A DNA stretch of 64,000 nucleotides. Origin: Candidatus Jorgensenbacteria bacterium GW2011_GWA1_48_11 (GTDB taxonomy: Bacteria; Patescibacteriota; Minisyncoccia; UBA6257; GWB1-50-10). Each line of letters starts with the position of its first letter. Position 1 is the first letter of the stretch. The stretch spans positions 37,910-101,909 of the forward strand of contig LCPF01000001.1 in assembly GCA_001003475.1 (NCBI GenBank), given 5' to 3'. The notes under the pieces were generated by a model. That model had not been told where the DNA came from and did not search any database. It saw only the letters and a list, made by a program, of their open reading frames with translations. Position numbers and translations under genes: made by a program. Positions 6,405 to 20,019 of this stretch are shown piece after piece.

Positions 6405-6475
6405 TGCCGGGTCGTCTAACGGTAGGACCGCAGACTCTGGATCTGTGTATCTAGGTTCGAATCCTAGCCCGGCAG
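6405..6475 (+). tRNA. tRNA-Gln (anticodon CTG)
   Basis: Hand-folded cloverleaf: 7-bp acceptor stem (TGCCGGG/CCCGGCA), D-arm, anticodon stem GCAGA/TCTGT with loop CTCTGGA (U33, CTG, G37), 4-nt variable loop, and T-arm CTAGG-TTCGAAT-CCTAG. 71 nt; no encoded CCA. Confidence 0.75.
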
Positions 6476-6515
6476 CACTCGAAACTTTTTATCCCAAGAC
6501 CGAGAGGGGTAACAG

Positions 6516-9356
6516 CTAACTCAAAAGACCGCGCTTCACCACAACCGCTCTTAAGGTGGAGAGGTCGTCTTTCAGCTCAAATGACTTTTCTAATCGCGGG
6601 TCGTTTGCGATACCAGCCCAAAAAGCAAGCTTTGCTTTAACTTCTTTATCGTCTACATGCGATTGTTTTGTTATTGAGATAAGCGTCTCAAGGGGCATGT
6701 ATAGACCATTGTTTACTTCTGAACCAGAGAAAAACGGATCGCCCTTAAGCACGTCATCAAGGTTTTTCCACCCCTCTTTAAGGGGATACTTACTCCAGTA
6801 CAATTTTATAGCTCCGGGATGTTGCTTTAGTCCTCTACGTGCAGCATTTCGGATTTTATTAATCTCGTTCGTCGCCTCCTTAGATCCCGACCAACTTTGA
6901 TAAAGGACGTAGAAGAAATTTTCCTCGTATTTATAAATAATTTTCTTCCCAAGAAAATATCTTGCTTGCAAATCTTCAAAGACCGATTTTATAGCGTTCT
7001 TAACATCTTGATCGAAGTATTTTAACAGCTTGTCAAAAGCGGCTTCTAAGCGCTGATGTATGGAGCTACCACTACCACGTTCATTATTAGCTAGAGAATT
7101 TAATACAATATACTTCGCGCCAATATTTACAGATGACGAACTTAAAATCTTCTTCAAGATTTTAAGAACAGATTTTAGTCCTTCATCCGCTTTTTCTCCA
7201 CTTTTGTCTTTTTCAATCACGGATAGGATTTGAAAAACAAATTGGTAGATAGCCTCATCATATTCAGTGTCCCCAACGTTCATTGGTTGCAGAACAATCT
7301 TTCCATTCACAAGTCGTTTCCCTAATTCGTCCATGATCCTAATATTCAAATCCTCAGAAACATCCCACATTTCATGCACAAATCTTGCATATCCAACCAA
7401 GTCTTTGTTATTTAGCGTCGAGAGAGTCTTGTTGGATTTATCACTCTGGTGCTGTTGGTAAATTCGGCTGTATTTTCTATATCCCGTCTCAACACTTTCT
7501 GAAACCAACGAGAGATAATCGTGCATTATTTCTGGGTATGACGTGGTCCCAGAATATTGAATTTTGTTTTTTGTGTCATAACTTCTTTGCAGAAAATCAA
7601 GATAATAATGCATAACAAGTCCGATATATTTCTCAGTATTAATTTTTTCCTCATCCGAAAGCGTCCTTCCAATAATTGATTCAACCCAACCAATCAGTCC
7701 TGTCTTTTTTTCCTCCAATTCTTTCTTAATAAGATAACCGCCTAAATTGTCTTTTTCTGTTTGTGCAATAAGTAAATGGATTGTTTTCATAAAAAATTCG
7801 ATAAGAAATGGATGCTGGATCTTGATAAATTCCAACATAGTAACGTCACTAAATCGAATCGCATTTACCTTTTGTCCACCACTTCTGTCCCTAAACGATC
7901 CATAGAAAAACTCCAGGGCGGTAGAAACTCGAGCAACTACTCTAGGCGACTGCTCGGCAAGAACTCCAACCACGTAACCCATGGCGTCACTGTGTTTTCC
8001 CATGAAGGAAATGTTTGGGTGTGAAAAGGTATGTGGATAAATTTCTGTAGGAGTATCAACGCCTTCACTCTTCGCGATATTTGTTAACAAATCGTCGACA
8101 TATTTATATCTAATTAGTGGCTCAACTGGTGGAAGAAATATTCTCTGCACAACACTTTTCGGATCGTCATAAAAGAAGGTTTGCAGCGGCCGAACACGCG
8201 AATCTACGCTTTCGAATGTCTGCAAATGCTTTCTAAATTCTGGCTCTGAGATACAAAAAATAAAAATCAACTTTATGGGAAGGCCAGATCTTCCTTCGTT
8301 TTTGAAACGCTCAACAATTTCAACGAGGCGATATATTTCATCAAGCTGTCCTCGCTCAATCTCATCCACCATGATAATCCATAGCAACTCTTTAATTTCA
8401 GGAATATTTCCAAAAATCCTACCGACTATTTTTGAGGTAAATACTTTCTTGTCACCGTAAAATTGATCGTATGCGACGGCCCTTGTTTTTATCAACCCCC
8501 AATTAAAAAGCGACAGTATCTTGAGAAGGTCCGACAAAAGTCCATTTCCTGATTCTCGAAGAATTGACTGCATGAACGGAAGATACGATGCGACATCCAA
8601 TTTGGGGTATCTTTCTGTGAGGGTTTCGATCCAACGTTCCGCAAAAAGCCTAGAAAAATCTTTTGCCTCATTTGTTTCCGTAAGCGAAATATAGGTATAT
8701 AAAGTTTTTATTGGATCGAAGTTTTCGATAATCATCCTTGCATAAGACGACTTACCAAAACCAAGTCCTCCATAAATTCCAACAACATTCACATAATTAT
8801 TGAGTTTTTTAAGGCCGCTTGCCGCGTTCTTTGCTGAGGGTTCAAAAGTTAGCTTGTCATCTTTTGGTCCGACCGCCCCCGCGGCAAAGTTTCTAAAGGT
8901 AAGATCGGGAGATTGACATAAATGCTCGTTCAGCTTTTTTAAGAGCATTGTTATCAGTGCCAGCACTAGGCCGATCCAGCAATATCCTGACAACCAAAAT
9001 TCAGTCGGGTGGGCTATTAAGGCGACGGCCGACCACAGGATTAGACCATTCACAAACCCCCAATAAAAATAGAAAACCCATGAAGGCTGGTTGTGTAGCC
9101 CTTGCTTTTTTAACTGAGCCGCTGGTCTTATAAAAAAATGGATTAAACCAATGACAATCAGTAAAGCGAGAGTACCAAGAACAATGAAGATGGTTTGGTT
9201 TGCATAAAATAAATCCGTAACTAAATCCCGGATTGGAGGTCCAAATTTATAAAACAAGAGGAAGTTAAGGAACGAGATGGAGACAACCCAAAACAACCTC
9301 CACGCAAAAAGGTGTTTGTAGAATATGTCAAGCCCCGGCAGTGATTTATCCTCCAT
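6516..9356 (-). CDS. membrane-anchored P-loop NTPase, KAP/STAND-like (946 aa)
   Basis: Four predicted N-terminal TM helices. Walker A GGLGFGKSS (GxxGxGKS) about 45 aa after the last TM, and Walker B IIMVDEIER (hhhhDE). A roughly 500-aa alpha-helical C-terminal region. AT-rich relative to flanking genes. Confidence 0.6.
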   Translation of the reverse strand: MEDKSLPGLDIFYKHLFAWRLFWVVSISFLNFLLFYKFGPPIRDLVTDLFYANQTIFIVLGTLALLIVIGLIHFFIRPAAQLKKQGLHNQPSWVFYFYWGFVNGLILWSAVALIAHPTEFWLSGYCWIGLVLALITMLLKKLNEHLCQSPDLTFRNFAAGAVGPKDDKLTFEPSAKNAASGLKKLNNYVNVVGIYGGLGFGKSSYARMIIENFDPIKTLYTYISLTETNEAKDFSRLFAERWIETLTERYPKLDVASYLPFMQSILRESGNGLLSDLLKILSLFNWGLIKTRAVAYDQFYGDKKVFTSKIVGRIFGNIPEIKELLWIIMVDEIERGQLDEIYRLVEIVERFKNEGRSGLPIKLIFIFCISEPEFRKHLQTFESVDSRVRPLQTFFYDDPKSVVQRIFLPPVEPLIRYKYVDDLLTNIAKSEGVDTPTEIYPHTFSHPNISFMGKHSDAMGYVVGVLAEQSPRVVARVSTALEFFYGSFRDRSGGQKVNAIRFSDVTMLEFIKIQHPFLIEFFMKTIHLLIAQTEKDNLGGYLIKKELEEKKTGLIGWVESIIGRTLSDEEKINTEKYIGLVMHYYLDFLQRSYDTKNKIQYSGTTSYPEIMHDYLSLVSESVETGYRKYSRIYQQHQSDKSNKTLSTLNNKDLVGYARFVHEMWDVSEDLNIRIMDELGKRLVNGKIVLQPMNVGDTEYDEAIYQFVFQILSVIEKDKSGEKADEGLKSVLKILKKILSSSSVNIGAKYIVLNSLANNERGSGSSIHQRLEAAFDKLLKYFDQDVKNAIKSVFEDLQARYFLGKKIIYKYEENFFYVLYQSWSGSKEATNEINKIRNAARRGLKQHPGAIKLYWSKYPLKEGWKNLDDVLKGDPFFSGSEVNNGLYMPLETLISITKQSHVDDKEVKAKLAFWAGIANDPRLEKSFELKDDLSTLRAVVVKRGLLS

Positions 9357-9463
9357 CTAAATATGAACTTCCTTGATTTCTATCTGCGATTTTCCTTCTT
9401 TTCTTGGTTGCTGGAAATTTATCAAAAGACCATCTTTGATTTTGAGGATTTTCATGTAATTTT

Positions 9464-10570
9464 TTATTTTCTCTCAAGTTCCTCAAGCGGAGGATAGGTT
9501 TTTTGTTGGCCTGCGATAAGCTTCGGCACCTCTTTGCCCTCTCCAAGCGCTAGTAATCCCCTGAGTCGTAAATCAATAACTCCGACGTCCATGTACATAT
9601 CCTTATAGGATTTGTAACGTTTTTTCCACGCCTGGTGATGCGCATGAATTTCGGATTTCAAATCTCCAGCAAGCGTTAACAGCTGATGAGCTACGCCGTT
9701 AACTTTGTCGCCATACTCATTTCCTGCCAGATATTTGTAGACTTCGTTTACGGCCCTCATTTTCTCGGCATTGGATAACTTCAGTAGTGCGATCCGCACC
9801 AAGCTTTGCCGCAAAACATATGTGACTGGCTCAACATTTACGGGGCTGATGACAAATACCGTGTTGGAAACGAAATAAGACTGCCTCTTAGCCGGAAAAG
9901 CATTGGTAACGAGAACCGCGAAGTTAGCTTGCCTGAATTCGCGCGCGTCAGCGGCCTGCTGGACATGGTTCTGGCTGAAAGACTTAACCTTTTTGCATTC
10001 GTAAACGATCTTACCGACAGGCTTATCCTGCTCCATAACGGTTTGAATAATATCCCCGCCCTTCCCCGGATGGTCGAAGTGGTCGTGCGGAAATAATTCC
10101 TTAAGTTTTGCTAGAAGCTTGTCTTCTTCGAGTAAGCCTTCAATCTGTGGCGTAATTCCTTTTTCCATTTGCTCTCTCAGGCGTTTTATTTCTTGATCGC
10201 CCTTCTCTTTTTTCTCCAAAGCGATTTTCAAGCTTCGCTCCAATTGCCCCATTTTATTCTTAGTCTGGGCAACGCCTTTCGCGGTTTGCGTTTCCAATTT
10301 CTTCTTAAACGTTTCCTGGTCTAGTTTCCGCTGTTCACGGAAGTTGGCGGCAAGTTTGTGTTTTTCTTCTGCTACGGCGCGCTTTGCGGCACGCTGCAAT
10401 TCAGCCTTCTCTTTTTTCCATAATTCGGCTTTGCGCTTTAATTCTTTTCGCTCCTCTTCGAGGTGTTTAATCTCTTCATGTTTCGCTTTCCAAATACCGA
10501 GGGCTTTATCATATTCCTCCTGAGTCAACGGCTTACCGCATACGGGGCATTTTTTTGTTTGGTTTTCCAT
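9464..10570 (-). CDS. DUF2130-like protein: N-terminal CPxCG zinc-knuckle, long coiled coil, C-terminal PD-(D/E)xK-like domain
   Basis: KCPVCGKPL at the N-terminus; about 130 aa of K/E-rich heptad-like sequence; C-terminal GGDIIQ...(18 aa)...YECKKV fits a D...E-x-K nuclease motif. Confidence 0.5.
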   Translation of the reverse strand: MENQTKKCPVCGKPLTQEEYDKALGIWKAKHEEIKHLEEERKELKRKAELWKKEKAELQRAAKRAVAEEKHKLAANFREQRKLDQETFKKKLETQTAKGVAQTKNKMGQLERSLKIALEKKEKGDQEIKRLREQMEKGITPQIEGLLEEDKLLAKLKELFPHDHFDHPGKGGDIIQTVMEQDKPVGKIVYECKKVKSFSQNHVQQAADAREFRQANFAVLVTNAFPAKRQSYFVSNTVFVISPVNVEPVTYVLRQSLVRIALLKLSNAEKMRAVNEVYKYLAGNEYGDKVNGVAHQLLTLAGDLKSEIHAHHQAWKKRYKSYKDMYMDVGVIDLRLRGLLALGEGKEVPKLIAGQQKTYPPLEELERK

Positions 10571-10583
10571 AGATATAGTTGGA

Positions 10584-11393
10584 TTACGCCGTGTCTATTT
10601 CTTTGGCGACTTTCTCGATTAAAGATTTCAATGAAACCCGGTCAAGCGTAATTATTTTTTTTGTCCCATAAATAAGGTTGAGCTCTTTCATTAAATCCCT
10701 AATTTTCTCTCTAGATTGTGCAAATTTCTTGTTCCCCCCGAGGTATTCAAGGACGGTAATAAGTATTCGGTCAGACCGCCCCATGGCGCGTTCAAGAACC
10801 TGCTGATAGATATCCTGCATTGAAAGGAGGATGCGGGTGAAATAGTATGGGTCCTTCTTTTTCAAATCGCCGAAGAAACCCGGATCGCGCTCCCACGGCG
10901 CGTAAGTGAGATGGGCGGCCCACCAGAGCCGCGCGATGGCGTGCCTGCGCAAGTCCCGGTCGTTCCCCCTTACAAACCAGTGCTCTAAAAGCTGGTTGAT
11001 GGCGCGCTGCTTGGCGTCGTCTGTTTTGAGGTCTTTGTATTCTCCGGGCAGGCCCCATCGTACAAGTGAGTACTTGCGGAATTCGACGTGGCTTAGGTAT
11101 GCCCAAAGCCTCGGATCGGAAGCCTGAGTTTCGTCTATGGCGCCGTAAAACTCATGGAGAGCTATGGCATTTTCTAGGTCTGTAGCGACCGGGTCCCTCT
11201 TTAGAGCTTTCAAGAATGGGGATTTACCTTGAACGGGGATTGTCGAAAGGAGTAGGTCCTTGTCTTTCACAGGATAGGAATGTTGGAAATAAGTCTTAAG
11301 AGAACTGCCGGAGCGCAGATCGGCCCTCATTTGCTCGATGACCGCCCGCTTGAAGATTTTTTGGTATTGGGTTTTATTCATACTCTCGTTCAT
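10584..11393 (-). CDS. hypothetical protein (island gene C, 269 aa, Trp-rich)
   Basis: Complete ORF that overlaps by 20 nt the 3' end of the upstream ORF 11374..12222 (gene B), which suggests translational coupling; no recognisable domain; conserved-looking WAYLSHVEF...RLWWAAHLTY segment. Confidence 0.55.
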   Translation of the reverse strand: MNESMNKTQYQKIFKRAVIEQMRADLRSGSSLKTYFQHSYPVKDKDLLLSTIPVQGKSPFLKALKRDPVATDLENAIALHEFYGAIDETQASDPRLWAYLSHVEFRKYSLVRWGLPGEYKDLKTDDAKQRAINQLLEHWFVRGNDRDLRRHAIARLWWAAHLTYAPWERDPGFFGDLKKKDPYYFTRILLSMQDIYQQVLERAMGRSDRILITVLEYLGGNKKFAQSREKIRDLMKELNLIYGTKKIITLDRVSLKSLIEKVAKEIDTA

Positions 11394-12222
11394 CGTTGGT
11401 CTCGAGCAACGACCCTATGCTTTGGAATCCCCGTGAGACGGGGTTGTCGAGAATTTTCTGCGCAACATCAAACGGGTCCTTGTCCCTAAGGCCCTTACCG
11501 TCAAGGATGGCCTCCAAACGGCCGAACCAGCTCATGTCCGCGTAGTCGCCGTTCCCGTTCTGTACTTGGTGCACCGCATCGATCAAGACTGGGAAGACTA
11601 TGGAAGCGTGCAACATCCCCTCTGCGAGCTTCTGGCCCCTGACATCCATGTAACTCTGCCAATCGGTTTTTGAAAGGATGACGGTAATTTTCTCGCCTTC
11701 ATAGTCGATCTGCATTGGCCCTTCGTGATGGCTGCCCACTACTATCGACATGAAAGACGAGACCGGTGGCCGGAGAGGATCGAAATTCTTCTCGGCTATG
11801 AACGAAGTGTACCCTCCGACTGCGAGGACATCACCCGCTTCTACGTCGAAAGATGCTCCTTCGTAATCTGGATGGCATTCGCTCGGCTGGTAGCCGGGGA
11901 TGTCCTTGTCGGCGCACACGTAGAAGCCAACCGCCACTCTTTCGCGGACCAGTTTCGACGGAATCATGAACCTGTCGATTGTTTTCCTCGTAGAATAGCT
12001 TGACCGGAAGAAAGTGCTTTGGCATTCGACTTCAGTCACGAATGACGCCTTTCCGTCCCGGATCAGCTCCTCGATCTTCGCGTTCTTCAAATTAAATATC
12101 GGGTTCAGCGTAATCTCGTCTTTTTTTAGTTCATAATGGAAGGGAGCGACGCGGAAAAAACCGCCGAGGTCGTCTTCGTTGCCAAGCACCGGATGCGGGT
12201 ATGATTTTGAATTAACCCTCAT
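11374..12222 (-). CDS. hypothetical protein (island gene B, 282 aa)
   Basis: Complete ORF that overlaps by 11 nt the 3' end of the upstream ORF 12212..13324 (gene A); no recognisable domain; possible metal-binding SHHEG patch. Confidence 0.55.
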   Translation of the reverse strand: MRVNSKSYPHPVLGNEDDLGGFFRVAPFHYELKKDEITLNPIFNLKNAKIEELIRDGKASFVTEVECQSTFFRSSYSTRKTIDRFMIPSKLVRERVAVGFYVCADKDIPGYQPSECHPDYEGASFDVEAGDVLAVGGYTSFIAEKNFDPLRPPVSSFMSIVVGSHHEGPMQIDYEGEKITVILSKTDWQSYMDVRGQKLAEGMLHASIVFPVLIDAVHQVQNGNGDYADMSWFGRLEAILDGKGLRDKDPFDVAQKILDNPVSRGFQSIGSLLETNDEREYE

Positions 12223-13324
12223 AGCTTTCTATGCCTAAGGCATATTTTTTCCTCGACTCGAGCCTCACGGCAAGGCGGATGGTCTGCCCGTTCTTAATGG
12301 AAAGGCCCTTGATCATAGATCCATCTGTTTCATATTTCGCCTTGGAGTCGATGTCCGTCGCTGATTTTATTTCGGCTGGATAGCTGTTGTCGTCGCCGAC
12401 CGCCACCAGCCTTATCCCTCCTTCGCACTCCTCGCGGCCCGTGATTGCGAAATGGTATTCGGGGCCTTCTTTCGTTTTCTGGATGAAGCTCCGGAAGGAT
12501 ATTGCGGAGGTTTTTATCCTGACGCCTTCTTCCCCTCCCGCTTCCGGCCCGGTCGGCCTTCCATGCGGCCCTTTGCCTGGGCCTTTGGGTGGCGTGCGCT
12601 TCACCCCTCCCGGCTCCTTGTTCGTAACTATGCTTTTCCGGATGACTTTTTCCACGTCCGCAGGGGATTCTTCTTTATTCGCGCCGACTTCGCGCCCGCT
12701 TTCCTGGGTTCCTTCCAGGTCGGTCGGATCGAACGCGGCCCCTTGCTGCGGAAGGTAGTCCCTGTCTTCATTGTCTGGCAGGTACTTATCCAACCCCGGG
12801 ATGTCCTGAGGTTCAGTAGTAACGGTCCCTCCCATGCTTTTCAACGATTCCTTTATGAAATCGTCCAGCTCGTGCATGGCCGCCCATCCGTTCTTGGCCC
12901 GGTCCCTGTCCCATTTATCGTGGGCGGGCGGCTCCATGTCTCGGAGAAGCCTGTTGCCGCGCTCGTCGTCACAGATGAAGACTCCGGCGTAAGGCTCCCT
13001 CAGCACGCGGGATGCTTTTTCCGTAACGAGCATTTTCGGCTTCCGGACCATCATGACTTTGCTGGGGTAATTTTCCTGCTTGCGCACGAAAAGCAGGACC
13101 TTCCCGAGGTGCTTCAACTCCTGTTCGAATTTCTGCTCCCAGTTCGTGGCCGCTTCGTAGAAGAATTTCGCGTCCTCCGCATCGAATTCGCTGAACTTCT
13201 CCGGTAGGTTGTCCTTCGTTATGCGGATTTCAGAGCCGTCCTTGACCACTACTTCAAGGTCGCCGTGAAGGATGGCAAGCCAAAAATTTTGAACGCACGC
13301 ATAGAAAGAAACTACCGCATTCAT
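12212..13324 (-). CDS. hypothetical protein (island gene A, 370 aa, with central Gly/Pro/Glu-rich disordered linker)
   Basis: First gene of the island operon. Globular N- and C-terminal parts are separated by a low-complexity segment KEPGGVKRTPPKGPGKGPHGRPTGPEAGGEEG. No recognisable domain. Confidence 0.55.
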   Translation of the reverse strand: MNAVVSFYACVQNFWLAILHGDLEVVVKDGSEIRITKDNLPEKFSEFDAEDAKFFYEAATNWEQKFEQELKHLGKVLLFVRKQENYPSKVMMVRKPKMLVTEKASRVLREPYAGVFICDDERGNRLLRDMEPPAHDKWDRDRAKNGWAAMHELDDFIKESLKSMGGTVTTEPQDIPGLDKYLPDNEDRDYLPQQGAAFDPTDLEGTQESGREVGANKEESPADVEKVIRKSIVTNKEPGGVKRTPPKGPGKGPHGRPTGPEAGGEEGVRIKTSAISFRSFIQKTKEGPEYHFAITGREECEGGIRLVAVGDDNSYPAEIKSATDIDSKAKYETDGSMIKGLSIKNGQTIRLAVRLESRKKYALGIESYEG

Positions 13325-13453
13325 TTTAAGAACAAATACGAGAAGGCGGTTGTATTAAACGCGGAAAAGCTAACCGCACGGCAAATCTCCAACAAGATAT
13401 TGAAAGATCTTAGATACTGAACCAGAGAACGCGGCACTAAAAACTTCTCATCC

Positions 13454-13484
13454 CAAAAACCGGGATGAGCTGATTTCCCCGGTT
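13454..13484 (-). terminator. intrinsic terminator of the 13483..14295 membrane-protein gene
   Basis: On the minus-strand RNA: CCGGG-(13-nt loop)-CCCGG followed by UUUUU. The hairpin overlaps the stop codon. It separates this gene from the island operon, whose promoter region is 13325..13450. Confidence 0.5.
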
Positions 13485-14295
13485 ATTGGGTTATTCCGCT
13501 CAGTGCCCGCTCTTCCGCGGTTTTTCTGAACTGCGGCGTGAAATGACAAAGAATAAAAACGTAAGCGGCGAATTTGAAAATATGCCCCAGCATGTTGTGA
13601 AAGTAGTAAGCGCCGGGATAGAGAGTGAATTGGAATTCGCTGAAGATCGTGAAAACGAAAAAAAGCAGAAAATAATAAGGCGGGACGGCGCCCAACTTCC
13701 TGCTCTCATACCAATAAAGAAAGGCGGTCGCCGCAAACAGGAACATCAAGAAAATTTCGACTTCTATTTTCACGATGGTCAGGCCGAAAACTTTGGCCAT
13801 TGACGGCAATTGGGGAACGAAATAATAAACAGCGAGAAAAACGGCCATAGCGACCACGAAAGCGATCGCCACGCTTCCCGCAATGCTTAACTTGGATCTC
13901 GTTGAAGGCTTTATAAACACGCTTATCAAGAGTCCGGCCGCGACAATGAACCTCGCCGTAAGCCAAAAATAAATGGCGGTGTTTACCGTCGGGAAAATGA
14001 TCGTTTGGGGCATTCCGCCGTAGCTTAGAATATGCAGGATGTCGATCACGGCGGACGCAAGAAAAACGATGCAGAAAACCAAAGAACGCGCGCTTTGCGT
14101 AATCTGATAAGCGGAAAAGGCATAGAGGCCGATGACGAGAGCCACGGCAACGGTGAAAAATTCAACCAAGGCGTGGAAACCGAGATACCACATCCCGAAT
14201 TCGTAATAAAAAGCGCTGGGCTTGACGCCGGTTATAAGGATGACAGCAAGGGCCACAATGGCAAAAATCCAAAAATTTTTGCGCGAAATAATCAT
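13483..14295 (-). CDS. polytopic integral membrane protein (about 7-8 TM, sensor-domain-like, no output domain)
   Basis: 270 aa, almost entirely hydrophobic helices; no catalytic motif. Confidence 0.5.
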   Translation of the reverse strand: MIISRKNFWIFAIVALAVILITGVKPSAFYYEFGMWYLGFHALVEFFTVAVALVIGLYAFSAYQITQSARSLVFCIVFLASAVIDILHILSYGGMPQTIIFPTVNTAIYFWLTARFIVAAGLLISVFIKPSTRSKLSIAGSVAIAFVVAMAVFLAVYYFVPQLPSMAKVFGLTIVKIEVEIFLMFLFAATAFLYWYESRKLGAVPPYYFLLFFVFTIFSEFQFTLYPGAYYFHNMLGHIFKFAAYVFILCHFTPQFRKTAEERALSGITQ

Positions 14296-14344: not shown

Positions 14345-16932
14345 CTAACCGGGATTTCTGGCGAATACAGTCCTCGCCAAAAGCTTCCTTACTTCTTCAA
14401 GCAAAAGGATCGAAGCGGCAATCGAGGCCGCGTAAACCCATTCCCAAGCGGTAAGCGGCACCGTATGCAGGAATCGCTGCATAAAAGGATGATAAACCGC
14501 CAAGAACTGCAGCCCGATTATCAAAATCGTCGCACCGACCAAAAACATGTTTTTGAAAGGATTGATGGAAAAGACAGATTTGTCTTCACTCTTGCAATTC
14601 CACGCGTTGAACCACTGGAAAACCGCAAGCGTGGTCAGGGTCATAGTGAGCGCTTTCTCCAAATCACCGTCAAGGTACTGCCTAAACACAAAAAGAGACC
14701 CAAGAGCAATAATGATTCCCATAAACACCATTCGCTTCATCGCGAACGAATCAAGAATATACCTGGCGGGCTTCGCATAGCGGCGGCCGAGCAGGCCGTC
14801 CTCCCGCGGCTCCATCGCGAGCGAGACGTCGAGGAAGCCGTCGGTGACGAAGTTAAGCCAGATAATCTGAACCGGCAAGAGCGGCAGGGGGAGCCCCATG
14901 AACATCGCGCCGGAAATGGTAAGCACCTCCCCGATGCCGGTCGAGAAAAGATAAAGAATAACCTTCCTAATGGTCTTGTAGATATTCCGGCCCTCTTCAA
15001 CGGCGGAAATGACGCTCCCGAAATTGTCGTCCAAGAGCACGAGGTCGGCGGCTTCCTTGGCCACCTCGGTGCCGATTTTTCCCATCGCCACGCCGAGATC
15101 GGCGGCCGCGAGAGAAGGCGCATCGTTTACGCCGTCGCCGGTCATGGCAACCACCTCGCCCCGTTTTCTGAACAGCTCGATGATCCGCATTTTATGTTCG
15201 GGGGTCACGCGCGCAAAAACATTGCAGATTCCGAATTTTTTCGACAATTCTTCATCCGAGAGCTTTTCCAATTCTTCTCCGGTGATGACGCCATCCTTCC
15301 CATCCGCAAGCCCCGCTTCTTCCGCAATCGCACGAGCGGTAATCTTGTGATCCCCGGTGATCATCACGACCCGGATGCCGGCCTGTTTGGCCCTTTCGAT
15401 GGCGCCTTTCACTTCTTCCCGCAACGGGTCTTTCATGCCGAAAAAACCGCCAAAAATAAGCGGCGGCAATTTTCCGCTAGTCACGGAGTCGCCCGCGTCC
15501 GGGTTGATCGCAAAAGCGAGAACCCGAAAACCCCGCTGGGACATGTCGAAAAATACGGCTTCGAGCCCTTCTTTTTCAGCGCCGGAAAGTTTCTCTGATT
15601 TCTTCGCTCGCCAGACGCGATCACAAAGCTCGAGGATCTTTTCCGGCGCGCCAACAACGGTCAGAAAATTCCTGTTTTCAAACCTGTGAATCGTAGCGTG
15701 ATACTTGGTGAGATAATCGAAAGGCAGTTCGGCTATCTTGGGTGATTCCTGCTCGCCATCCCTGAAGCCGATCTTGCGGCCGAACACTCCCAAGGCCGCC
15801 TCGGTCGGGTCGCCGGACACTTTCCAGATATTCTTTCCTTCCACATACATTGCATGAGCATTGGAGCAAAACAAAGCAACTCTTCCCGCCAGCACAAGCT
15901 CCGGATGATTCAATGGCTCGACGGCCGCTCCCTTCAGGAGCACTCTTCCTTCCGGCTCATAGCCGCGCCCCTCAACATCAAATGTCTTTCCGTCAACATA
16001 CACTTTCTCAAGCGTCATCTCATTTTTAGTGAGAGTGCCGGTTTTATCGACGGCGATGATCTTCGCCTGCCCCAACGCCTCGACTGCCTGTAATTTCTTA
16101 ACCAGCACATTGCGCTTAGTCATGCGCCACACTCCCGAAGCCAAAACCAGGGTCATGACTATCGGCAGGCCTTCCGGAATAATCGAGACCGCAAGAGACA
16201 CCACGGTTGCGAACATCTGCCTCAACGATTCTCCGGCGGCAAGACCAAAAACCATAAGAACGGTTCCGATCGAAAACACGGTGATGATGATAAGGCGGGA
16301 AAGACAACAACCGCCTTGCCGTTGCCGCTTGCGATATTGGTACCCTTGAAAATCATGTTCCTTTGGTCATACGCAGAAATGCGAATATTGCCCAACGCAT
16401 CGCTGGTCTTTAAGACCGGAACAGACTCGCCGGTAAGGCTAGCCTCATTAACGCGGAGGGAATTGACGGAGATAAGTCGGGCGTCGGCGGGAATTTTATC
16501 GCCTTCCTGAAGAATGACGACGTCACCGGGAACAATTTCCTTGTCGGGTACGATCATGATTTTACCGTCCCGCAACACCGAAGCGGAAGTCTCCACGAAT
16601 CTCCGGAGAGCCAGCAACGTATATTGAGCTCTTCCTTCCTGAATTGTTCCCACGATCGCGTTGAATATGAGGACCAGGAAAATAATGACCGCATCAGCGG
16701 TCTCGCCCATGAATAAAACAACCGCCGCGGCGGCCATCAAAACATAGATGAGCGGGCTTAAGAACTGCGAAAGAAATATGGAAAATACGCCGGCGACTTT
16801 TGGTTCCGGGAGAGAATTGGGGCCATACCCGACAAGACGCTTACTGGCCTCTTCAAAACTCAGCCCCGATTCGTCAGAATCGAGTTCTTCAAATATCTCC
16901 GACGGTCGTTTCGCATACCAACGAATACTCAT
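14345..16932 (-). pseudogene. P-type cation-transporting ATPase (type II, Ca2+/Mg2+-like) split by a frameshift or small deletion near 16300
   Basis: ORF 16222..16932 encodes the N-terminus, the first TM pair and the actuator domain (LTGESVP), then runs out of frame after GNGKAVVV. ORF 14345..16279 encodes the rest (DKTGTLT phosphorylation site, MITGDHKITA, GDGVNDAPSLAAADLGVAMG, C-terminal TM helices). Its upstream in-frame extension (LSRLIIITVFSIGTV) is the expected M3 helix. About 20 aa of the expected ATG..T..GKIA..TPLQ segment appear to be missing. This could instead be an assembly error. Confidence 0.5.
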
Positions 16933-19947: not shown

Positions 19948-19948
19948 G

Positions 19949-20019
19949 AGCCGGAGAGAGGAATCGAACCTCCGTCTTTGCTTTACGAAAGCATTGCTCT
20001 GCCATTGAGCTACTCCGGC
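19949..20019 (-). tRNA. tRNA-Thr (anticodon CGT)
   Basis: Reverse complement folds as a cloverleaf: acceptor GCCGGAG/CTCCGGC, D-arm GCTC-AATGGCA-GAGC, anticodon loop TTCGTAA (U33, CGT, A37), T-arm GGAGG-TTCGATT-CCTCT. 71 nt. Lies directly upstream of the MBL gene start. Confidence 0.75.

Follow-up and report, generated by a model that had tools for sequence, protein, structure and literature searches.

We have analysed a 64,000-nt stretch of DNA (the window; coordinates given without a locus name are positions within it) from a groundwater genome of Candidatus Jorgensenbacteria, which belongs to the Candidate Phyla Radiation (CPR)/Patescibacteria. Next to a tRNA-Gln(CTG) gene the window carries five co-oriented minus-strand genes, denoted A′, B, C, D and E, which a first-pass annotation had taken for one undescribed defence system. 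Our results indicate that the segment 6477–13469 is probably a composite defence-type islet made of three unrelated modules: a remnant of PDC-M33 (A′-B-C), which is a three-gene candidate defence system catalogued in PADLOC, a DUF2130 protein (D) and a membrane-anchored P-loop NTPase (E). The locus represents kinds that are already known and is no five-gene system in its own right, and for the window the outcome is mainly corrective: what had appeared to be a new system is read as a mosaic islet whose largest module is both catalogued and truncated. The features of the locus are as follows.

6405–6476 (+): tRNA-Gln(CTG), called by ARAGORN, with its 3′ end toward the island
6471–6505 (+): proximal copy of an imperfect 35-nt direct repeat, formed by the last ~6 nt of the tRNA and ~29 nt downstream
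6516–9356 (−): E, 946 amino acids (aa), putative membrane-anchored KAP-family P-loop NTPase, locus tag UY23_C0001G0052
9464–10570 (−): D, 368 aa, DUF2130 protein
10584–11393 (−): C, 269 aa, PDC-M33C/DUF6339, full length
10599–13288 (−): the sole DNA block homologous to intact serine-recombinase elements (blastn)
11374–12222 (−): B, 282 aa, PDC-M33B, full length, locus tag UY23_C0001G0055
12212–13324 (−): A′, 370 aa, 5′-truncated PDC-M33A
13289–13429: junction DNA from the homology breakpoint to the distal repeat, holding the ATG of A′ (13324)
13430–13465: distal copy of the repeat, overlapping the terminator hairpin of the MASE3 gene
13469–13447 (−): terminator-like hairpin of the upstream MASE3 gene, a 10-bp stem followed by a T-run
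13483–14295 (−): MASE3 membrane-sensor gene, 270 aa

All five open reading frames (ORFs) were found where the first-pass annotation had placed them, with the overlaps of 11 nt (A/B) and 20 nt (B/C) and the gaps of 13 nt (C–D) and 107 nt (D–E) that it gave. The tRNA gene does stand beside the last island gene, at a distance of 39 nt from the stop codon of E rather than 40 nt, and a terminator does lie upstream of the island, at the minus-strand position listed above and not at 13454–13484. The surroundings are also as described, with superoxide dismutase (SOD) and a 152-aa gene on one flank and the MASE3 gene, a P-type ATPase and ftsEX on the other. Contigs of the same population, recovered from several samples, carry the identical island at 100% DNA identity, including the 370-aa form of A.

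PDC-M33 genes at the tRNA-Gln locus

The A, B and C proteins of the window match the PADLOC-DB profiles PDC-M33A (4.6e-47), PDC-M33B (1.8e-59) and PDC-M33C (3.6e-35), so that the earlier statement that the genes correspond to no named system does not hold. B and C match their profiles end to end, and the adjacent, co-oriented and overlapping A-B-C layout is identical to that of PDC-M33; every locus surveyed has these genes in the A-B-C order. C is in addition a Pfam DUF6339 protein (6.9e-40), and B comprises a β-sandwich N-terminal domain and a helical C-terminal domain. Apart from DUF6339 in C, no matches were obtained for the three proteins among the PDB, Pfam, NCBIfam and PHROGs sequence profiles. 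The possibility that they are remnants of phage structural or replication genes, which had been raised as a check, was followed up and none of the genes is one. The PDC systems, 145 in number and untested, are ‘phage defence candidates’ whose prediction was based on genes lying within BREX, DISARM and Type I restriction–modification (R-M) loci (Payne et al. 2024, bioRxiv 10.1101/2024.01.29.577857). Literature searches for PDC-M33 and DUF6339 found no paper mentioning either.

The A gene of the window is truncated at its 5′ end, which the first-pass annotation had overlooked. Its product spans positions 249–625 of the 627 in the PDC-M33A profile (the C-terminal 60%), whereas the intact homologue P0001 (623 aa, 81% identical to window A) spans positions 5–625 (5.7e-143), and nearly all of the 120 homologues among the matches listed are 608–644 aa long, against a full length of ~625 aa. 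In tblastn, residues 262–623 of P0001 align to window positions 13300–12215, and no trace of residues 1–261 was found in the 64-kb window. A′ starts at a new ATG, 8 codons upstream of the homology breakpoint, and no Shine-Dalgarno-like sequence is visible upstream of it. Two other short forms of A in the database are split pseudogenes that keep the N-terminal fragment together with the upstream partners described below.

The closest intact loci (L001–L009) show what has been lost. They carry, in order, a large serine recombinase, a C5 DNA methyltransferase (MTase; TIGR00675 dcm, 1e-91), a Vsr-family endonuclease, a 72-aa gene (s72), A, B and C, followed by a variable slot, which in L001 holds a 465-aa DUF2130 protein and in L006 a CBASS pair (CD-NTase and Cap15). 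Homology of the window DNA to such elements is confined to 10599–13288, that is, from about codon 265 of A to the end of C, with 77% identity to L001 and 74% to L006. The first-pass annotation had also missed that the window lacks the usual partners altogether: its 64 kb contain no match to the MTase, Vsr, s72, the recombinase or the N-terminus of A. In the functional sense the locus is not an R-M system, as there is no MTase in the 64 kb and no recognisable nuclease in A, B or C. The junction DNA gave blastn matches only in same-population contigs, at 100% identity, and the 158-nt stretch between A′ and the stop codon of the MASE3 gene, which contains the MASE3 terminator, has no match in the intact elements.

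These observations are most simply explained by an element of this family having once been present at the 3′ end of tRNA-Gln, with a deletion then taking its proximal ~4 kb. Such a deletion would have eliminated the recombinase, methyltransferase, Vsr and 72-aa genes as well as the part of A that encodes the entire ATP-binding domain, and A′-B-C would be the distal 2.7 kb of what had been a mobile core of 6.6 kb. Because both the ATPase and the MTase are absent, the ancestral function is impossible in the window copy; judging from its gene content, this copy can neither hydrolyse ATP nor mark self DNA and is most likely an inert remnant. Joint loss of the methyltransferase and the motor domain is a kind of loss that a cell can survive.

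The ORF upstream of A′ (13483–14295) was considered as the missing N-terminus of A and rejected, as it encodes an unrelated MASE3 membrane-sensor protein. MASE3 is usually found at the N-terminus of kinases or cyclases; here the protein stands alone, has no output domain and ends 158 nt from A′. The same deletion might have cost it a C-terminal portion, yet it has its own stop codon and terminator.

The intact PDC-M33 family

The elements L001 (6843–15000) and L006 (6848–15230) share a common 6.6-kb core (recombinase-MTase-Vsr-s72-A-B-C) that is 74% identical at the DNA level and ends with C, and a short conserved block that follows the cargo at a tRNA-Ser gene, whose 3′ end abuts the cargo. 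In a third intact element (L153) the recombinase adjoins a tRNA-Gln(CTG). All three elements share with the window the topology in which the tRNA 3′ end meets the end of the cargo. Beyond the closest relatives we surveyed 79 further metagenomic loci, in which A is 30–68% identical, by ORF calling and iterative hidden Markov model searches; the denominators are the loci with room for the gene concerned, and the counts for MTase, Vsr, s72 and DUF2130 come from 26 loci with room on both sides. B adjoins A in 60 of 61 loci and C adjoins B in 52 of 54, so the co-occurrence of A, B and C in relatives, on which the earlier proposal had in part depended, proved near invariable. A C5-MTase is directly adjacent in ~21 of 26 loci (~80%), sometimes ahead of s72-A and sometimes after C, in either orientation; Vsr occurs in 17/26 and is absent from about a third of the MTase-bearing loci. 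Pairwise identities of MTase and A co-vary (Spearman 0.36, a value reached by none of 500 Mantel permutations; 0.65 for A against B), which fits a pattern of co-inheritance with occasional replacement of the MTase.

The s72 gene (L001 9781–9999 and homologues), a conserved ORF of ~72 aa, directly precedes A in roughly half of the loci (12/26). Searches of Pfam, NCBIfam, PHROGs and PADLOC gave no match for it; it may serve to control or regulate the PDC-M33 system.

The family is widespread. B alone accounts for 1,862 representatives at 50% identity, and A-B-C occurs on plasmids of Lactococcus, Ligilactobacillus, Priestia and Deinococcus. On the conjugative dairy plasmid pS127 of Lactococcus lactis (L189; NZ_CP061323.1 106588–110213), where C is annotated as ‘DUF6339 family protein’, A-B-C lies between an AlwI-family restriction enzyme and AbiGII, and no C5-MTase, Vsr or 72-aa gene was found within 5 kb of it. 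Other CPR copies are decaying: in L184 and L185 A is in two ORFs, with B also split in L184 and the MTase and recombinase fragmentary in L185, which suggests that PDC-M33 is often inactivated in these small genomes.

Intact A is predicted to be a MORC/MutL-type GHKL ATPase with an S5/transducer module, a disordered linker (~440–519) and a C-terminal β domain, because the alignment of intact homologues shows Bergerat-fold signatures (N-box E..IQNS.DA with N56 invariant, G1 box D128.NT.GL.G and G2 box GGSFGIGKG) and because fold comparison gives MORC3, SMCHD1 and MutL as the best structural matches. The GHKL module was revealed only by fold comparison and was not detected by Pfam, NCBIfam or PDB sequence profiles. 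A′ retains the S5/transducer-like middle domain, the linker and the C-terminal β domain; the GHKL ATP-binding domain (~residues 1–261), and with it motifs I–III of the Bergerat fold, is missing from the window protein.

GHKL+S5 ATPases have been predicted as components of R-M operons that also encode cytosine methylases and Vsr (Iyer, Abhiman and Aravind 2008, PMC2292703). Like the MORC/paraMORC ATPases of that study, intact A appears to be a GHKL+S5 module found on mobile DNA in association with cytosine methylases and endonucleases of the Vsr family. Unlike them, it has B and C (DUF6339) as partners instead of superfamily II (SF-II) helicases or recognisable restriction endonucleases, there being no helicase among the partners in the related loci, and it could be placed in none of the groups paraMORC1–5; the window copy differs further in having no GHKL domain, methylase or Vsr. 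A GHKL ATPase is also found in the anti-phage defence system Shedu type I-D (VcSduA; PMC12137116), where the ATPase is thought to gate a nuclease, and a defensive role is likewise predicted for PDC-M33. However, VcSduA (paraMORC3) is a single polypeptide in which GHKL is fused to a DUF4263 PD-(D/E)xK nuclease, whereas A, B and C contain no recognisable nuclease and the C-terminal domain of A is β-sandwich-like.

The intact PDC-M33 module is most likely R-M-like, a reading that fits the class predicted by Iyer et al. The linked methyltransferase would mark self DNA, and an ATP-driven A dimer would, together with B and C (DUF6339), engage unmodified incoming DNA. The complex may then cause this DNA to be cut or nicked, either by the Vsr-family endonuclease encoded alongside or by an as yet unrecognised active site.

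Our results therefore add to the three-gene PADLOC entry for PDC-M33, from which the window copy departs by its missing GHKL domain and its missing MTase, Vsr and 72-aa gene. A is predicted to be a cryptic MORC/MutL-like GHKL ATPase that is invisible to sequence profiles; the A-B-C core travels with a C5 methyltransferase, often together with Vsr and the 72-aa gene; and in CPR bacteria it is carried by serine-recombinase elements adjoining tRNA genes. Neither the MTase/Vsr linkage nor the MORC-like fold of A is in any paper that we found. It is the intact family that deserves follow-up, with the Lactococcus carrier of pS127 as a culturable host of the candidate system, and the window locus is of modest interest.

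Neighbouring modules and the probable insertion site

The assignment of D to DUF2130, with a CxxC motif, a coiled coil and a PD-(D/E)xK-like core, is borne out by a Pfam match (PF09903, COG4487; 6e-21, 75.3 bits against a cut-off of 26.7) and by the location of the motifs: CPVC at residue 8, GGDII at 171 and YECK at 190, giving D173...E191-x-K193. DUF2130 has been placed in the PD-(D/E)XK superfamily as family 109 (Steczkiewicz et al. 2012, PMC3424549), and D agrees with this placement in both its score and its D...ExK motif. It differs in its N-terminal CxxC and coiled coil, which bear a weakly supported resemblance to the Rad50/SMC hook region; residues 2–144 give weak Rad50-hook, coiled-coil and LmuB matches. 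The LmuB/JetC matches were rejected as evidence of membership, being to the coiled coil only, and DUF2130 is absent from PADLOC. Because D is only 29% identical to the DUF2130 protein that follows C in L001, as compared with 82–86% for A, B and C, it appears to be another occupant of the variable cargo slot and not a conserved partner.

In keeping with the first-pass description of E as a KAP/STAND P-loop NTPase with a four-transmembrane anchor, the protein has a Walker A motif (GGLGFGKS) at residue 196 and, between residues 16 and 142, four hydrophobic stretches near its N-terminus. Its own score for Pfam KAP_NTPase is below the gathering threshold (14.8 against 20 bits). Many homologues at 30–55% identity carry a precomputed PF07693 match, which indirectly supports a relationship to the KAP family. 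E shares with the family whose members carry PF07693 the Walker A motif, the transmembrane segments and an architecture of ~950 aa; in contrast to KAP NTPases, its four transmembrane segments are N-terminal and not inserted in the NTPase domain. The sole PADLOC match, to PifA (1.5e-4), was rejected as evidence of membership, as it covers the P-loop only.

Members of the E family are ~950 aa long, occur mostly in CPR bacteria and are found alone in other settings: after a Type IIG R-M gene near tRNA-Asn (L186/L187), after a HinP1I-type R-M system with Vsr (L188), beside a serine recombinase (L102) and downstream of tRNA-Gln(TTG) (L100). These contexts support a single-gene role for E in defence or conflict, and nothing more specific. 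The family thus recurs in CPR defence islands and is a single-gene candidate that, like PDC-M33, is predicted only. The low GC content of E (0.395, the most AT-rich part of the island) suggests a separate acquisition. D is also below the flanks (0.458 against 0.47–0.53), and to that extent the islet is compositionally distinct as had been claimed; A (0.549), B (0.521) and C (0.49) are no different from the flanks.

The imperfect direct repeat that bounds the segment is real. Its two 35-nt copies are ~77% identical, and their alignment score of 28 exceeds that of shuffled sequences (15.9 ± 2.2), being reached in none of 1000 shuffles and in none of 544 real-sequence controls. An inverted match between the tRNA anticodon arm and 13410–13428 was dropped, as its score of 17 is within the chance range (15.9). 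No att-like repeats exceeded chance at the termini of three intact elements (L001, L006 and L153). The segment adjoins the 3′ end of a tRNA gene and has a copy of the direct repeat on either side, as tRNA islands do, and encodes no integrase or recombinase.

Relatives for a comparison of the site were sought by a contig scan with the flanking SOD, in which the best match was 66% identical and only one contig (L043) kept the local synteny. In L043 the order tRNA-Gln(CTG)-hyp152-SOD-fmt is retained without the island, the homologue of the 152-aa protein being 48% identical, and a CHASE2/cyclase gene ends ~550 nt past the tRNA. The scan yielded no near relative in which the site is empty, and all same-population contigs carry the island. 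The synteny in L043 and the intact relatives that abut tRNA 3′ ends support the view, put forward in the first pass, that 6477–13469 looks like a defence-type islet inserted next to the tRNA-Gln 3′ end.

In L043 the ~550-nt spacer that follows tRNA-Gln on its 3′ side holds a short tandem duplication (1933–2200), which appears in the ORF translation as the peptide MIEKPILIIVIPRADALG twice.

Alternative readings of the locus

Several observations weigh against reading the segment as a composite islet with a dead PDC-M33 remnant of R-M-like ancestry. The ORFs of A′, B and C are unbroken; A′ has kept all 15 of the 15 family-invariant residues in its retained part, and its divergence does not exceed that of B and C; all same-population contigs show this arrangement at 100% identity; and a residual or new function of A′-B-C is possible. 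Because the genes are intact and A′ is not excessively diverged, either the deletion is recent or the remnant is still constrained, with neither favoured. The effector step of the intact system is without a candidate in A, B or C, where no nuclease fold or motif was found, and ~20% of the loci, including that on pS127, have A-B-C with no adjacent methyltransferase, which means that the R-M-like logic may not be universal. As regards the insertion, the empty-site comparison depends on a single distant relative whose far flank differs, the distal copy of the repeat doubles as a terminator and, to our knowledge, serine recombinases do not usually leave repeats like the 35-nt one.

The state of the ORFs is also the ground for a doubtful alternative in which the truncated module is alive: either the S5 and C-terminal fragment of A would have, with B and C, a nucleotide-independent activity (for example DNA binding, or action as a decoy), or B and C would have been assembled into a new system with D and/or E. 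Besides the three intact ORFs, the retained invariant residues and the unremarkable divergence of A′, the new ATG just upstream of the breakpoint and the clonal arrangement, fixed across several samples, are consistent with this. However, the entire Bergerat ATP-binding domain is gone, a terminator lies just upstream and the new ATG has no Shine-Dalgarno-like sequence before it, other short forms of A are plainly decaying pseudogenes, and a recent deletion would also leave intact ORFs.

There is, further, a rather small chance that the locus bears on newer biology in two respects: that intact PDC-M33 is a new form of methylation-gated restriction, in which a MORC/MutL-like ATP-driven DNA clamp acts with B and the DUF6339 protein via the Vsr nickase or via non-nucleolytic clamping or compaction of unmethylated invader DNA, and that selection for a new role has preserved the ATPase-less A′-B-C in this CPR genome. 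In its non-nucleolytic form the former would be, by analogy, a bacterial counterpart of eukaryotic MORC silencing, and if a function in phage defence is true the family would offer an experimentally tractable bacterial relative of the eukaryotic MORC silencing ATPases.

It is improbable that the intact MTase-Vsr-A-B-C cluster is a very-short-patch repair module, of which the window would hold the remnant. Here a Dcm-type methylase on the mobile element would be accompanied by Vsr and a MutL-like A, with B and C as adaptors, to fix the T:G mismatches that arise from 5-methylcytosine deamination. The MutL/MORC-like fold of A, the dominance of Dcm and Vsr among its neighbours and the functional interaction between MutL and Vsr established in E. 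coli (cited in PMC2292703) are what such a module would lead one to expect. The loci in which A-B-C has no MTase or Vsr (~20%) and the absence of Vsr from many MTase-bearing loci argue against it, as do the position of the module between a restriction enzyme and AbiGII on the Lactococcus plasmid, the presence of CBASS and other defence genes at its flanks, and the fact that PDC candidates were chosen for their embedding in BREX, DISARM or Type I R-M loci.

The original proposal, that A–E form one undescribed defence system in which a P-loop NTPase and a nuclease-fold protein act with three accessory proteins, is very unlikely. The co-orientation and tight packing of the genes, with their short overlaps and gaps, and the fixation of the five-gene arrangement in the population are consistent with it, but it is largely refuted by co-occurrence: DUF2130 accompanies A-B-C in 1 of 26 loci and E in 0 of 82. 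Moreover, the slot that D occupies here holds a far more divergent DUF2130 protein in the closest intact element and CBASS in another close relative, homologues of E stand alone in five other contexts, GC content steps from 0.55 (A) to 0.395 (E), and A is truncated. The pairing of a P-loop NTPase with a nuclease-fold protein is an accident of adjacency.

That the genes are no island at all but ancestral core context beside tRNA-Gln, with the repeat arising from two similar terminators, is scarcely credible: the lack of an integrase in the window, the host-like GC content of A, B and C, the coincidence of the distal repeat with a terminator hairpin and the want of an empty site in any near relative found are outweighed by the 74–77% DNA identity of A-B-C, with sharp breakpoints, to mobile elements of unrelated contigs that carry serine recombinases and abut tRNAs, by the tRNA-Gln synteny of L043 minus these genes, and by the AT-rich composition of D and E relative to the flanks.

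Two observations concern the wider window. The P-type cation ATPase beyond the MASE3 gene (14345–16932, minus strand) is represented in the window by two overlapping ORFs of 236 and 644 aa and in same-population contigs by a single 892-aa gene; the window is 100% identical to one such contig (L010) save for ~91 nt absent near 16303, at the break in the ATPase, and this loss is a frameshifting deletion or an assembly variant. A second tRNA gene, tRNA-Thr(CGT), lies at 19948–20019 on the minus strand.

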